Shown here: positions 5,250-60,541 of the stretch, piece after piece
Numbering within the stretch: the first letter of the stretch is position 1
Layout of the letters: each line of letters starts with the position of its first letter
From: Eledone cirrhosa
Lineage: Eukaryota
Direction: 5' to 3'
Assembly: GCA_964016885.1 (NCBI GenBank)
Contig: OZ024740.1
Coordinates: 258,788,001-258,852,000 of the forward strand
Length of the DNA stretch: 64,000 nucleotides
Program-made: the position numbers and the translations under genes
Notes under the pieces: model-generated
What the model saw: the letters and a program-made list of their open reading frames with translations, nothing else
The model's database searches: none
Told to the model about the DNA's origin: nothing

Positions 5250-5404
5250 TTCATTATTTCTGAAGACGGCATATATGTGTGTTTGGTATGTATATTTAAT
5301 CTTGATAGTTTGTATAATTTTGTATAATTTTGTACATAGATCTGTTGAATATGCATGCCAATTCTAACACATATATATCCTAGAAACGATCGTTAAATAA
5401 TGAA
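5250..5404 (+). ncRNA. Type I hammerhead ribozyme motif with very long stem II (PLE 3' region)
   Basis: Stem I ttcattattt/aaataatgaa (10 bp); CTGAAGA 5260-5266; ~116 nt stem II (atatatgtgtgtt...aacacatatatat); GAAA 5383-5386; palindromic stem III cgatcg; GTT triplet. Confidence 0.75.
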
Positions 5405-6307
5405 CTTTTTTTGTTTAATATAAGGAACTGTTTCATTGTTTTATTCATTATTTTTTTAATATTTTATCTTGACTCTGTATTCCGTTTATCTTTCACCGAA
5501 AGTGATTTTTCATTGCATCTCTTCTTTCCATGATATCCGGACTGCATTGAGTTCTTCATACGGATTGGACACTACCGTAAACTCTTGGTAGATTTATCTA
5601 CATAAATATATATTAACACATTTTTGACAGCGATACATGCCCCAGCTAACAGGACAGACACGCGTGGTAAGTAATACACACAAAAGCACATATACATACG
5701 TACGAAATAGTAAACACATACACACACTCTCACACATAAATATACATATACAAATACATAAACACGTACATACACATACATACACAAACACGTACACGTA
5801 TACAATATAAACACACACATGTATATGTAATTATATACACACACACACATATATATATATATATATATATATATATATATATATATATATATATATATAT
5901 ATATATATATATATATATATATCTACATACAAAAATATAAAAACATACACACATATACATACATAGCTGAACAATTATACACATGCAAATACGTATATAT
6001 CAAAAGAACGCACAACCAAATACAAACACACACACATACACACACACACACCCACACACAAACCCACACATACATACACATACATATACACATATACATA
6101 TATACATATACATACATATATATACACATATATATATATAAATATATATATATATACACACATACACGTACACATACACACATGCATACACATACACACA
6201 CACATATACATGTGTGTATGTGTAAAGCTCAGTATTAGATAAGACAAATAAACCTTACATAAGCGTATATATAGTAGTAAAGTAATAAAGCCATACAAGG
6301 CAATTAA

Positions 6308-6366
6308 TCCATTCACCAGAGGTTTCTTAAAAGCAAGAAAAGTTTCCTTCAATCTTCAGAATGAAA
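6308..6366 (-). ncRNA. Hammerhead motif, probably inactive (GTG at the cleavage triplet)
   Basis: Reverse complement reads ttcatt-CTGAAGA-ttgaag...cttttaa-GAAA-cctctgg-TG-aatgg. Homologous to 7398-7455. Confidence 0.6.
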
Positions 6367-7397
6367 AAAGGCCTGGTTTATCCACATATACATACATATA
6401 CACACACAAAAATATACAAATATATACACACATACAGACACGCACACACACATATATATATATATATACACATACACATATATACAGACATATATACATA
6501 TATATACATATACATATACATATATATACATACACAGATATATATATATATACATACACAAACATATACGTAAACATATACATACGTACACATATACGTA
6601 TATACACACAAAAATACATACACATAGGTATGTGAAGGGCAAAACAAAAAGAATATATGGGGGGGGGGCCTAAGAGGAGGTAAAAATATAAGGGGAGGTA
6701 AGGGAGAAAAAAATTTTAAATATACAAGAGTACAGAAGGTAGAAGCAGCAAAATAAAAACCGTAGCAAAAGTAAAGAGCAGAGAAGGAGGGGCATGTATC
6801 GCTGTCAAAAATTTGTTAATATATATTTATATATTTTTTTCTTATATTTATTTGCGTGTGTTAATATGTAGTGGAGTGCATTCATGTATGTGTATGTATG
6901 TACGTTGTATGTTTGTGTGAATGTATGTATGTGTGTGTATATATATATGTGTGTGTGTATGTGTATGCTTGTACACACACATGTGTGTATATGTGTATAT
7001 ATGTATATATATATATATATATATATATACATATATATATATATGTATATGTGGATATGTATATGTGTATATATATGTGTGTGTGTGTATGTGTGTGTGT
7101 GTGTGTGTGTATGTATGAATATATGTATGTGTATGTGTGTGTATATATGTGTATGTGTGTGTAGGTGTACGCTCTTTATATATATATATATATGTGTATT
7201 TGTATGTGTGTATGCGTGCATTTATATATATGTGTATATATGTATGTGTGTGTAAGTATGCTTTTGTGTTTTTTTGTGTGTGTTTGCATGTGTAGTTTTA
7301 TTTTATTTTTCCTTTCCTTCTCCCTTTTCCAGCCTCACTTTCATATAGATTGCATTTTTGTTTTTAGAATCCATATTCAATAAACAAACCAGGATTT

Positions 7398-7455
7398 TTC
7401 ATTCTGAGGATTGAAAGCAAAACCTTTTGCTTTTAAGAAACCACTGGTAAATGGA
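7398..7455 (+). ncRNA. Type I hammerhead ribozyme, canonical core
   Basis: ttcatt-CTGAGGA-ttgaaagcaaaa cc ttttgcttttaa-GAAA-cca c tgg-TA-aatgga; all three stems pair. Confidence 0.85.
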
Positions 7456-8700
7456 ATAATTGCCTTATGTTGTTTATTACATAATAATAATAATTAAGCT
7501 CTGTTGCATACATAGAGCACTCTTTTTTCCTGGACTTTTCCGATGGAATTACTTCATTTATGTATATATATATATATATATATATATATATATATATATA
7601 TATATATAGTAACAATAATAAATTTGAAGACTGAAATCCAAAGCGGTCTCGATAAGTTTGAATATATATCAAATATATAAGAACCCTATTACCACGCTAA
7701 AAATTCTGATTTAGTCTAGATATAGCCGTCGAAACGGAAGGAAATCTGCCGTCGGGGTTATACATTTTCCTATTGCCCACTCTGCTACCCTAAGTATTGA
7801 GTCCTCTGGTGTGTTATGGTCCATATGGTCCCTTACCACACTTACTTCTTTATATATATGTATCATTTCTGATTTTTGCGTTTCGCTTCGCTTTTCCTGC
7901 CCGCCGAAATGCGATTGTCGCTGAATCTTTATTTGTATATATACATATATATATATACATATATATATATACATATATGTATATATATATATATATATAT
8001 ATACATATATATATATATATATATATACATAATACATTATGAAGAGAGAAGAAACATTTAGATATAATTAGTAATAAAATGTATCATACCTAAACTGTTC
8101 CTAAATTCCTCGACTACGTAGTTTCGTGGCATAAACAAAAACAATATATCAAAGATATAGAGTCCTTGATAAATATATATATATATATATATATATATAT
8201 ATATATATATATATATATATATATATATATATATATATATATATTTAGATAAGCAGAACAAGCAAAATTCAACCAATTTTTTTTTAAATCCAGGGGTACT
8301 TAGTACCCACGGGCATATTAACTTCTATATATATATATATATATATACATATATATATATATACATATATATATATATATATATATACATATATATATAT
8401 ATATATATATATATATATATATATATATATATATATATATATATATATGTATATATACATATATATATACATATATATACATATATATACATATATATAT
8501 ACATATATACATATATATAATAATATATATACATATATATATACATATATATATATATATATATATATATATTTATATATATATATATATATATATATAT
8601 ATATATATATATATATATATATATATATATATATATATATATATATATATATATATATATATATATATAAATATATATATTTATATATATATATACACAT

Positions 8701-58892: not shown

Positions 58893-58922
58893 TGTTTTCC
58901 TGTTTTTTCTGTTCAAGTTCTA

Positions 58923-58981
58923 GCTGCCTGATAAGGTCATTGTTGTTGAATAAGGGTTATTACTGAAATATATATTGTAGC
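58923..58981 (+). ncRNA. Degenerate hammerhead (CTGATAA)
   Basis: gctgc-CTGATAA-...-GAAA-tatata-TT-gtagc. Confidence 0.45.
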
Positions 58982-59126
58982 GAATATGAATAAATGAGTT
59001 TAATTTTAACTTGTTGACTTACACCTTATGCATATATATATATATATATATATATATATATATATATTTATATATATATATATATATATATATATGTGTG
59101 TGTGTGTGTATATATATATATGTGTA

Positions 59127-59363
59127 TACTAATAATAAAAAGGACAAAGTGTCAGGTCCCCATTACGTTTATTGAAGTGTGACCCGCGTTTCACGATTGA
59201 TAGGCACATGGTTCGATCTGTATCGGTCTGGCCCGACTATTTTGATTCCAGAGTCGGGCCAGATCGATGCAGATTGTACCTTGGCCTGGTCAATCACGAA
59301 ACGTGCGTTACACCTCAATAAACATAACGGGGATCTAACACTTCGTCCTTTTTATTATTAGTA
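59127..59363. repeat. Fold-back of a PLE tail containing the 3' half of an HHR
   Basis: Arms ~110 bp around the hairpin tggcccgact...agtcgggcca; GAAA-cgtgcg-TT then aataaa. Confidence 0.9.
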
Positions 59364-59614
59364 ATAGACCCTACTTAGTACAACACCAATATACTTACTG
59401 GAAACTACGCACTCTGGTGAACCTACAGTAACAAAACGTTACAATCCCTAAATATATATATATTTAGGAATTGTATATACATACATATATATATATATGT
59501 ATACATATATATATGTATACACACATATATATATATATACTTAGGGTAAATATTGATGCAATCAATTCAAGCACTCAACGTACTTATTCCACATTGGAGT
59601 GACGGAGTAAATAT

Positions 59615-60541
59615 CGAATAAGGAAAAGCGAAGTAGTTTCAGATGTTAAAGTCCTTTAATAATAATGCTGTGATATTTATTTCAATGGCGACAGTGGCCA
59701 CACTGTTCCGTGCGCCAGTGCCGCGACATCGTCAGACAGCTTGTTACATAATAAGGTTATGTTTCCGAGGCAATCCAAATTGAATCGACATGGGAACGGA
59801 CGAAGTGTGTGCTCTTGGGTTCTTCATCCGTTCCCTTGTGAGTACCAATTCACCCCCACCGGTCTGCGCAGACGCAGGTCCGAAGGAAGTTGACCATTAG
59901 CTACCGCAGATTTCAACGTAATTCGCCTAGTCAGTTCCCCCTCTCAACCAAACAATGACCCATTCAGGCCTGTTATATATAGCTTACTGCTAGCCAGCCC
60001 GTCTGAATGGGTCATTGTTTGGTTGAGAGGGGGAACTGACTAGGCGAATTACGTTGAAATCTGCGGTAGCTAATGGTCAACTACCTTCGGACCTGCTCCT
60101 GCGCAGACCGGGGAAGGGGGGGGGTGAATTGGTACTCACAAGGGAACGGATGAAGAACCCAAGAGCACACACTTCGTCCGTTCCCATGTCGATTCAATTT
60201 GGATTGCCTCGGAAACATAACATTATTATGTAACAAGCTGTCTGACGATGTCGCGGCACTGGCGCACGGAACTGTGTGGCCATGTCGCCATTGAAATATA
60301 TATCACAGCATCATTGAGTTGGCAGTATCGGTAGAGTGTCGGACATGCTTTCCAGCATAGTTATGTCCCTTTACGATCTGAGTTCAAATCCCGCCGAGGT
60401 TAACTTTGCCTTTCATCCTTACGGGTCGATAAAATAAAGTACCAGTAATATACTGGAATAATTGCTGGCCTTGTGCCAAAAGTAGAAACAATTATTATTA
60501 AAGGACTTGAACATCTGAAACTACTTCGCTTTTCCTTATTC
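59615..60541. repeat. Large fold-back (~350 bp arms) with an HHR in each arm and a SINE (60316-60498) inserted in the right arm
   Basis: 59667-59966 is the reverse complement of 60003-60309, and the arm resumes after the SINE; HHRs read gctgt-CTGACGA...GAAA-tatata-TC-acagc. Confidence 0.9.

Follow-up and report, generated by a model that had tools for sequence, protein, structure and literature searches.

The 64,000 nucleotides analysed here (the window; Eledone cirrhosa, contig OZ024740.1, positions 258,788,001 to 258,852,000) are AT-rich, filled with microsatellites and octopus-like in their protein matches, and they contain seven palindromic units in which two 3' ends of Penelope-like elements (PLEs) stand head to head within TA repeats. 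These mirror-image pieces are genuine and very unlikely to be artefacts, and they represent a new example of a known PLE insertion anatomy, of which the structure, the TA target and the ribozyme had already been published. The anatomy, two family-wide 3' end points in one family (Z) and the differences between the junctions of the copies were observed directly. We consider it probable that each pair goes back to a single retrotransposition event, in which two cDNAs would have been primed on opposite target strands (twin priming) and joined head to head. A first-pass annotation of the window had described the units as hairpin "mini-PLEs", formed by fold-back of a self-priming cDNA and perhaps mobile as a class of their own. 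Its recognition of PLE 3' ends, type I hammerhead ribozymes and (TA)n anchoring was borne out, whereas fold-back as the general route and a separate mobile class were not. Our evidence covers seven window units, with read data for family Z alone; the letters T, O, Q, G, P, X, Z, F, R, N and Y label repeat families.

Anatomy of the palindromic units

Palindromes were identified by a masked self-BLAST of the window, and a 55-bp unit hidden by the mask (45331-45385) was read directly; a generic inverted-repeat finder was dropped as detector, being swamped by TA runs. Besides the 55-bp unit, we obtained 17 local inverted matches. The head-to-head units of PLE-type 3' ends number seven, namely T (8697-10602), O (44799-45004), Q (50837-51028), G (51218-53388), P (55066-55259), X (59127-59451) and Z (59540-60541), so the earlier count of more than ten palindromes built from PLE tails referred to real palindromes but was too high. 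Positions 44799, 50914, 55133 and 59127, previously given as turns, are in fact starts of arms, and the turns lie at about 44865-44873, 50972, 55196 and 59245. Two further units have the opposite polarity, the 55-bp unit and R (12561-13159, arms about 75% alike). No hammerhead link was found in the remaining inverted repeats, e.g., those at 10673-10970, 13237-14121, 14295-15491, 17460-18210, 28171-28324, 38758-39200 and 47601-47866.

Most units are stumps of 190-820 bp without an open reading frame (ORF), and T and G hold ORF remnants; it seems likely that these two are the long extreme of one size range shared with the stumps. A PLE-type reverse transcriptase (RT) together with a GIY-YIG endonuclease was traced for T (via the homologue P0021 and its relatives) and for G alone, and no ORF accompanies O, P, Q, X and Z in the window. 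The broken ORF of T, whose match begins at 8819, is 68% identical to Octopus vulgaris protein P0021 and is followed by a hammerhead core pair at 10358-10385; any tail of this unit was severed by the palindrome at 10673-10970. The ORF of G matches the Pfam family RVT_1 (E 3.6e-9) and PLE homologues with a GIY-YIG domain (PF01541). A broken ORF other than that of T is 50% identical to a GIY-YIG protein of O. bimaculoides. The window self-BLAST gave no direct tandem of pseudo-long terminal repeats (pseudo-LTRs) around a full ORF; all copies are 5'-truncated stumps, so this result speaks to completeness only.

A descriptor scan of the window for type I hammerheads gave 10 matches scoring at least 10, compared to 0, 0, 1 and 0 in four controls made by reversing or shuffling the sequence. 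Reading by eye yielded 27 candidate sites, consisting of 13 exact pairs of CTGANGA and GAAA cores, eight degenerate ones and six GAAA-only halves, and the right arm of Q represents a seventh such half. With 13 intact core pairs and about eight decayed ones, the previous estimate of about 15-20 motifs was a fair one. Rfam searches of the window recovered no hammerhead, neither at gathering scores, where the single match was a tRNA, nor by E-value among the 150 of 362 matches listed, nearly all of which were miRNA matches driven by microsatellites. Full cores are present in T, P and Z and a nearly full one in O; Q and X carry GAAA halves and G a doubtful variant. Their assignment to the type I hammerheads of PLEs is supported by the sequence: they share type I topology, a palindromic or short stem III and variable sequence with those described before (PMC4209133), where hammerhead pairs 100-700 bp apart on opposite strands are already mentioned. 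They differ from these in the much longer stem II regions of several copies (up to about 110 nt) and in the closed stem III of the Q, R and P/O hammerheads. Window copies extend 5' across the hammerhead cut site; therefore, uncleaved RNA would have been the template.

In six of the seven units, the arms are unequal, with 41-88 extra nucleotides before the (TA)n tract on one arm, which the first-pass annotation had overlooked. The distances from arm end to TA run (left/right, in nt) were 46/83 in O, 80/0 in Q, 0/41 in G, 67/0 in P, 5/88 in X, 76/0 in Z and 1/690 in T. The claimed (TA)n flanks were confirmed on the tail-less arm, which ends 0-5 nt from a TA run in six of the seven units as compared to 2.3% of background positions; the far limit of each extension was itself placed by the TA run, so the tail side is no independent test of the anchoring. 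That the extension belongs to the element is shown for Q by a second copy at 7702-7848, for O and P by their mutual alignment and for Z by reads. As judged from sequence and position, it is the known PLE "tail" at about twice the published length, with 67-88 nt in five window units and 41 nt in G, compared to 30-40 nt in published PLEs and 28-33 nt in metagenome relatives. Unpaired window copies end at either the inner (47263) or the outer site (7848), and all six units with two readable ends combine one outer with one inner end. A shared 12-nt motif (44945-44956, 50881-50892, 55105-55116, 59569-59580, 5545-5556 and 45613-45624) lies 41-62 nt before the TA run in several tails. On 101 held-out segments, the tail motif (about TATTGAGTACTT, 41-61 nt ahead of the TA run in O, P, Q and Z) gave 18 matches against a shuffle mean of 9.9 and a maximum of 19, which is not significant, and at a stricter cut 4 matches against 2.4 by shuffle; the 12-nt motif is a candidate protein-binding site and serves as a lead only.

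The junctions are private: none is common to any two window units, and even O and P, which are related, have separate turn points. As previously claimed, the junctions of O, P, Q and X lie in or beside the hammerhead, but the native hairpin that was taken as the rule is present at the turn in only two of the seven units, Q and X. Q folds into a perfect hairpin, and the centre of X is occupied by a 10-bp hairpin which recurs at 58401-58433 with a matching loop (z = -2.6); both centres are probably the loop of hammerhead stem II. Three of the four mismatches in the apical 26 bp of X, a small sample, are G-U pairs of the sense strand; A-to-I editing between the X arms was rejected, as the mismatches run in both directions. 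In T, G, P, O and Z, the arms overlap by 3-4 nt at most: T is joined at 8818/8819 and G at about 53064-53071, both with an overlap of about 1 nt or less as judged from homologue codons, the Z junction leaves about 3 nt, P stops inside the core and O is offset by at least 17 nt. Random end points share at least 3 nt within 60 nt in 54-72% of cases and at least 4 nt in 15-28%; because the end values of O and Z include right-arm bases, these background rates alone were used. Most of these overlaps do not exceed chance, which argues against native hairpins as the general turning point. Of the two short hairpins proposed as seeds, both exist (5559-5579, 5 bp; 58401-58433, 10 bp), but the first gave a tail-to-tail unit, the wrong polarity for a cDNA fold-back.

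Two 3' end points and a probable pair of cDNAs

To follow family Z beyond the window, we mapped four read runs on 59541-60040. In run X1 (2477 contigs), the best-supported loose ends listed on the 3' side were 59562 (28 contigs, continuing with the tail to the TA run), 59611 (25 contigs, TA run) and 59616 (26 contigs, TA/GA repeat), and single contigs of two other organisms gave matching ends. In many copies, the Z ends thus cluster at an outer and an inner site; these are 3' end points of the family as a whole, separated by about 70-76 nt and each anchored in a microsatellite. The end clusters of run X11 at 59564, 59778/59781, 59847 and 59923 were rejected as library cuts, since they coincide with AATT sites, and a 23-nt Z pattern gave 0 matches in metagenomes. 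Four raw reads with two different starts contained a strand-switch joint between 59634 and 59687 with 0 nt overlap, which appears to fit a Z copy whose tail-less arm is 53 nt longer; this geometry was deduced from a 70-nt side beginning at an AATT site, and neither end of the joint is such a site in the window copy. The depth of restriction site-associated DNA (RAD) reads from other Z copies was about 97 at 59983-59999 and 0 from 60017 onward. The other copies depart from the window sequence at about 60003, and the 35-nt spacer of Z is native sequence. No read or contig among those listed bridged the window's own Z junction.

For one cDNA to yield such a unit, it has to begin at the outer site, extend to the most 5' point and only then turn; therefore, the tail-bearing arm must own the spacer. 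This arm does reach further 5' in Q, X and Z, whereas in O (by at least 17 nt), P (at least 4 nt) and G (about 1.6 kb) it is the tail-less arm. An outside check covered 78 PLE-related metagenome loci, 14 of them with an inverted repeat; eight plus locus L021 were inspected, and a search of the eight for target-site duplications (TSDs) gave candidates in four inspected loci. L065 has a 14-nt TSD and a 33-nt tail on its short inverted arm, the direct arm being about 250 codons longer, and L052 shows a 10-nt TSD and a 28-nt tail likewise on the short inverted arm, while in L070, for which the TSD candidate is weaker (8 nt), the long arm bears the tail. Locus L075 was set aside, the ORF match there not being flanked by the repeat. 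Thus, the tail sits on the arm with the shorter 5' reach in O, P, G, apparently the read-defined Z copy, L065 and L052, which speaks against single-cDNA self-priming as the general route. The arms of X are 84.7% alike, yet the right arm is 97% identical to another copy, which suggests two templates. As a separate observation, L021 contains a direct repeat (2763-2820) and, at 48-295, a 248-nt near-perfect 5' palindrome whose turn precedes a hammerhead core by about 22 nt.

By twin priming, a dimeric RT/GIY-YIG protein would nick both strands of the TA tract, and one cDNA would be started from the outer site and the other from the inner site 41-88 nt upstream, which would leave the tail. Both cDNAs would end early, often in or near the structured hammerhead, and their 3' ends would be joined with 0-4 nt of overlap, or via stem II complementarity if both stop there (Q, X); the second strands would then be filled in by repair. 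We rather expect that the mirror half is made afresh at every insertion. These enzymatic steps are proposed by analogy with L1 twin priming and with a purified PLE protein, a predicted dimer, which cuts and extends both strands and uses two start sites one tail length apart (PMC11167929).

Several points weigh against this reading. The start site of the purified protein did not differ between the two strands (PMC11167929), so that the pairing of an outer with an inner start is a supposition of ours. TSDs are unreadable within (TA)n, and the tails of G and X are probable ones, deduced from geometry alone. At a distance of 830 bp from X, the segment 58401-58500 may have arisen by local duplication, and later central deletions could mimic the small asymmetries of O and P, although they give a strained account of G, L065 and L052. 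Fold-back would also suit units Q, X and Z, and the 59634/59687 joint stems from a RAD library rich in restriction-site ends and could conceivably be a ligation chimera. The 55-bp unit is left unexplained by twin priming, the putative PLE origin of O, P, Q, X and Z is argued from hammerhead, tail and target without an ORF link, and the sample amounts to seven units and one family with reads. We found no proposal of twin priming for PLE inversions in the literature searched, which leaves out most subscription journals; the supplements of two sources (PMC11167929; PMC8557442) could hold one, as well as tails of greater length.

Alternative origins of the mirror halves

In the model of the first-pass annotation, one cDNA from the outer site folds back, primes itself and copies itself to the inner site. 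Self-priming has been inferred from palindromic PLE junctions before (PMC3846280), and the perfect hairpin of Q just 5' of GAAA, the 10-bp hairpin that X shares with 58401-58433, the ownership of the centre by the tail-bearing arm in Q, X and Z and the identical arms of P all agree with it, as does the resemblance of the 55-bp unit to a hairpin extension, though of the sense strand. We nevertheless consider the model unlikely, since without later deletion it allows no tail on a shorter arm, as found in O, P, G, the read joint, L065 and L052. It also leaves the unpaired inner-site ends beside TA unexplained (47263 and the ends of 25 and 26 contigs), and most junction overlaps are at chance, with 0 nt at the joint 59634/59687. 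A general route through fold-back at the TA runs themselves was unsupported, with one case in 167 runs compared to 4 in 2875 control pairs. The arms of the 55-bp unit were aligned to 5545-5579 and its fold was computed; it looks like a sense-strand extension and not like a cDNA product.

Two independent 5'-truncated insertions of opposite orientation into one TA tract are quite improbable as the general explanation. TA tracts are hot spots, as illustrated by four elements in a row along 50511-53388, the arms of O and X are only about 84% alike, and R does look like such a case, its pair being read from the sequence as two separate insertions. A tRNA-like head on the right R copy was rejected, as the region is a decayed hammerhead core of which only 10 nt match a tRNA-bearing repeat. 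However, no TA remnant is present at the junctions of Q, P, X, G and T, the arms belong to the same family and are 96-100% alike in five of the seven units, all six readable units pair one outer with one inner end, and a single 14-nt TSD surrounds L065.

Template switching during replication at self-complementary flanks is a known route to palindromes, and an ordinary insertion made palindromic in this way, aided by its (TA)n flanks, would suit the 55-bp unit, with TA on both sides and sense-strand polarity, and possibly a 16-nt mirror across the TA run 53389-53430. As an origin of the head-to-head units, we regard it as highly improbable: the short arm ends where many copies have an independent 3' end of their own, at a site defined by the family, neither G nor T is producible by this route, and the 16-nt mirror is weak in view of the rates for TA runs and control pairs given above.

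It is hardly credible that non-autonomous mini-PLEs are transcribed and re-inserted as whole hairpins, although non-autonomous PLE derivatives are known (PMC8557442; bioRxiv 10.64898/2026.07.22.740005) and 58401-58433 shares hairpin and loop with the centre of X. The copy at 58401 has no left arm, and RAD depth in the Z copies falls to 0 from 60017. No junction is shared in the window and, with no shared turn point, a separate mobile class receives no support from this small sample. In particular, O and P differ in their turn points, the sole strand-switch joint listed shows another Z copy turning at a different place (59634/59687), and RAD reads of other copies which reach the Z spacer do not run on into its right arm.

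We attach next to no probability to a fold-back artefact of library or assembly, which could draw on the unbridged Z junction among the listed pieces, on 14 of 14 contigs at 59997 differing from the window and on the identical arms of P: as the annotation had argued, only one of the Z arms holds a short interspersed nuclear element (SINE), with a short target duplication, and arm identities range from 83.7 to 100%, the arms diverging in six of the seven units, and moreover flanks and tails are unmirrored and arms end on family-defined sites. A fold-back DNA transposon or miniature inverted-repeat transposable element (MITE) was rejected because the ends are asymmetric and the junctions vary among copies.

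Related elements, neighbouring repeats and implications

The closest parallels are insertions of endonuclease-bearing PLEs (PMC3846280; PMC8557442), which likewise show head-to-head inverted 3' ends, heavy 5' truncation, palindromic junctions and a tail on one arm at either side, and T and G share their PLE ORFs. The window differs in its longer tails and in that most units are ORF-less stumps of 190-820 bp. Inverted pseudo-LTRs, tails, palindromic junctions and the self-priming hypothesis were described by Arkhipova et al. 2013 (PMC3846280), and a tail of 30-40 nt at either end of insertions, a TA bias, a CX2-5CxxC linker and non-autonomous derivatives in PMC8557442. With the Neptune, Naiad and Hydra PLEs of the latter source, the window shares (TA)n anchoring and, in T, a CX4CxxC linker within CX2-5CxxC (frame 9455-9871 and homologue P0032). 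In contrast to the Neptune linker type, G has CX4CX6C, and the ORF-less families can be placed in no clade. Poseidon of Anolis carolinensis (PMC11167929) also has two fixed 3' end points downstream of the hammerhead and an AT-rich target, and copies that run across the cut site are common to both; that work was done in vitro and contains no inverted-junction model, whereas our data are genomic and the start sites were deduced from copy ends. Non-LTR retrozymes (bioRxiv 10.64898/2026.07.22.740005) are similarly non-coding, hammerhead-bearing and PLE-derived, but they form head-to-tail tandems as opposed to inverted pairs with private junctions. Head-to-tail tandems with a complete hammerhead each, the retrozyme trait, were found neither in the window self-BLAST nor in our reading of the hammerheads by eye.

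In L1 elements, the second primer anneals internally and inverts the non-overlapping 5' part. Ostertag and Kazazian are said to have proposed in 2001 that two target-primed cDNAs are joined there at a short overlap. In the window, both starts are fixed near the 3' end, which gives overlapping arms and hence a palindrome.

Table 1. Features of the window related to PLE 3' ends
Feature	Position	Strand	Remarks
Family F 3' end	5250..5600	+	hammerhead 5260-5394 with long stem II region; native 5-bp hairpin 5559-5579
N segment, 77 nt	7609..7685	-	abuts TA run
Unpaired Q copy	7686..7848	+	ends at outer start site; head to head with N segment
T, short inverted 3'-end copy	8697..8818	-	1 nt from TA run; 98.4% identical to 10474-10602
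T, direct arm	8819..10602	+	5'-truncated broken PLE ORF (RT motifs, thumb, CX4CxxC linker) and 3' end
Family R	12503..13190	.	two hammerhead copies about 75% alike; 3' ends face across TA run 12840-12881
O, tail-less arm	44799..44864	-	CTGATGA core kept; at least 17 nt further 5' than partner; arm identity 83.7%
O, tail-bearing arm	44873..45004	+	begins in stem II; 83-nt tail 44922-45004, then TA run
55-bp palindrome, opposite polarity	45331..45385	.	arms equal the sequence 5' of the 5559-5579 hairpin; between TA runs
Older unpaired Z copy (75%)	47263..47545	-	hammerhead 47318-47382; ends at about the inner start site beside TA-rich DNA
Q, tail-bearing arm	50837..50970	-	80-nt tail 50837-50916, also in independent copy 7702-7848; arm identity 96.3%
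Q, tail-less arm	50975..51028	+	4-nt loop at the centre (50971-50974), immediately 5' of GAAA
G, long tail-less arm	51218..53070	-	5'-truncated RT and GIY-YIG ORF (about 52034-53061); 0 nt from TA run
G, short inverted arm	53071..53388	+	plus 41 nt before TA run (probable tail); arm identity 98.1%
P, tail-bearing arm	55066..55191	-	67-nt tail 55066-55132; ends within CTGATGA core
P, tail-less arm	55192..55259	+	entire core; at least 4 nt further 5'; 59/59 identical to left arm (100%)
X/Y chimera	58401..58575	+	X-type from 10-bp hairpin, joined to Y-type 3' segment of about 80 nt (91% to 7481-7560)
X, tail-less arm	59127..59238	-	84.7% to right arm, 82.7% to 58401-58500
X, right arm	59239..59451	+	13-nt loop, arm 97% to 58401-58500, 88-nt extension (probable tail) before TA run
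Z, tail-bearing arm	59540..60003	-	76-nt tail 59540-59615; hammerhead 59672-59735; native spacer 59969-60003
Z, tail-less arm	60004..60541	+	hammerhead 60242-60304; SINE at about 60316-60493; arm identity 97.7% without SINE

Further repeats of the window touch these families. Copies of the N segment at 7609-7685, 14210-14287 and 58006-58081 and a partial one at 25654-25705 have a common inner boundary and four different neighbours, and three of the copies abut (TA)n. Tail-only insertion is one possible origin of these copies, and copying of a 3' fragment cleaved by the ribozyme is another. The segments 58289-58575 and 7609-7848 are head-to-head units between TA runs whose halves are apparently from different families. 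Short mirrors flank a TA run at 53370-53450 (16 nt), 59438-59476 (about 12 nt) and 38758-39200 (41 nt), and in the first two, the outermost parts of the G and X tails are mirrored. A decayed hammerhead at about 28690-28732, to which one at 18289-18327 is related, is followed by a PLE-like thumb/endonuclease remnant (weak match) within 28613-30222, beside an inverted ORF piece at 30110-30222. The head-to-head inverted pair at 10673-10970, at the 3' end of unit T, has a tRNA-like head (Rfam tRNA, 39.9 bits, 10844-10915), and a related piece lies at about 58148-58178. The 1.2-kb inverted pair at 14295-15491, of which copies at 25793-25909 and 50511-50797 end at a matching point in (TA)n, showed no hammerhead and may represent a hammerhead-less TA-targeting family. 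Long MITE-like inverted repeats without a detected hammerhead are present at 13237-14121 and 17460-18210, the second flanked by TA on both sides. The remaining repeats include an abundant SINE of about 190 bp (19461-19692, 29810-30027, 36745-36936, 58710-58896, 60316-60496 and 61536-61755), whose copies are mostly 88-99% alike (about 74% for that at 19461), a decayed long interspersed nuclear element with RT and endonuclease remnants (21078-24901, minus strand) and a mariner-like transposase remnant with a helix-turn-helix match (55866-56768) within 102-bp inverted repeats.

The origin of the inverted structures of PLEs and of their microsatellite preference is a stated open problem (PMC8557442), and the repeat annotation of O. 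vulgaris lists 31 recently active Penelope-like families (PMC13282606). Our results offer a genome-only test of this origin, which compares the arm with the tail to the arm reaching further 5', and the small sample presented here favours two cDNAs. As a tentative extension, which we hold to be possible but rather doubtful, one RT-endonuclease dimer might insert two cDNAs, one per start site, sometimes from two RNA molecules or families, with the outer-site cDNA often stalling at the inner site. No description of such a two-RNA step was found in the literature searched, which covers few subscription journals. If true, it would account for the palindromes and the four N segments as well as for the arms of X, drawn from two subfamilies, and the X/Y chimera at 58401-58575, and the high-copy families of octopuses would provide a natural read-out of two-RNA retrotransposition. 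In any case, PLE hairpins of this sort are best annotated as PLE insertions and not as MITEs, miRNA precursors or a new class of elements.

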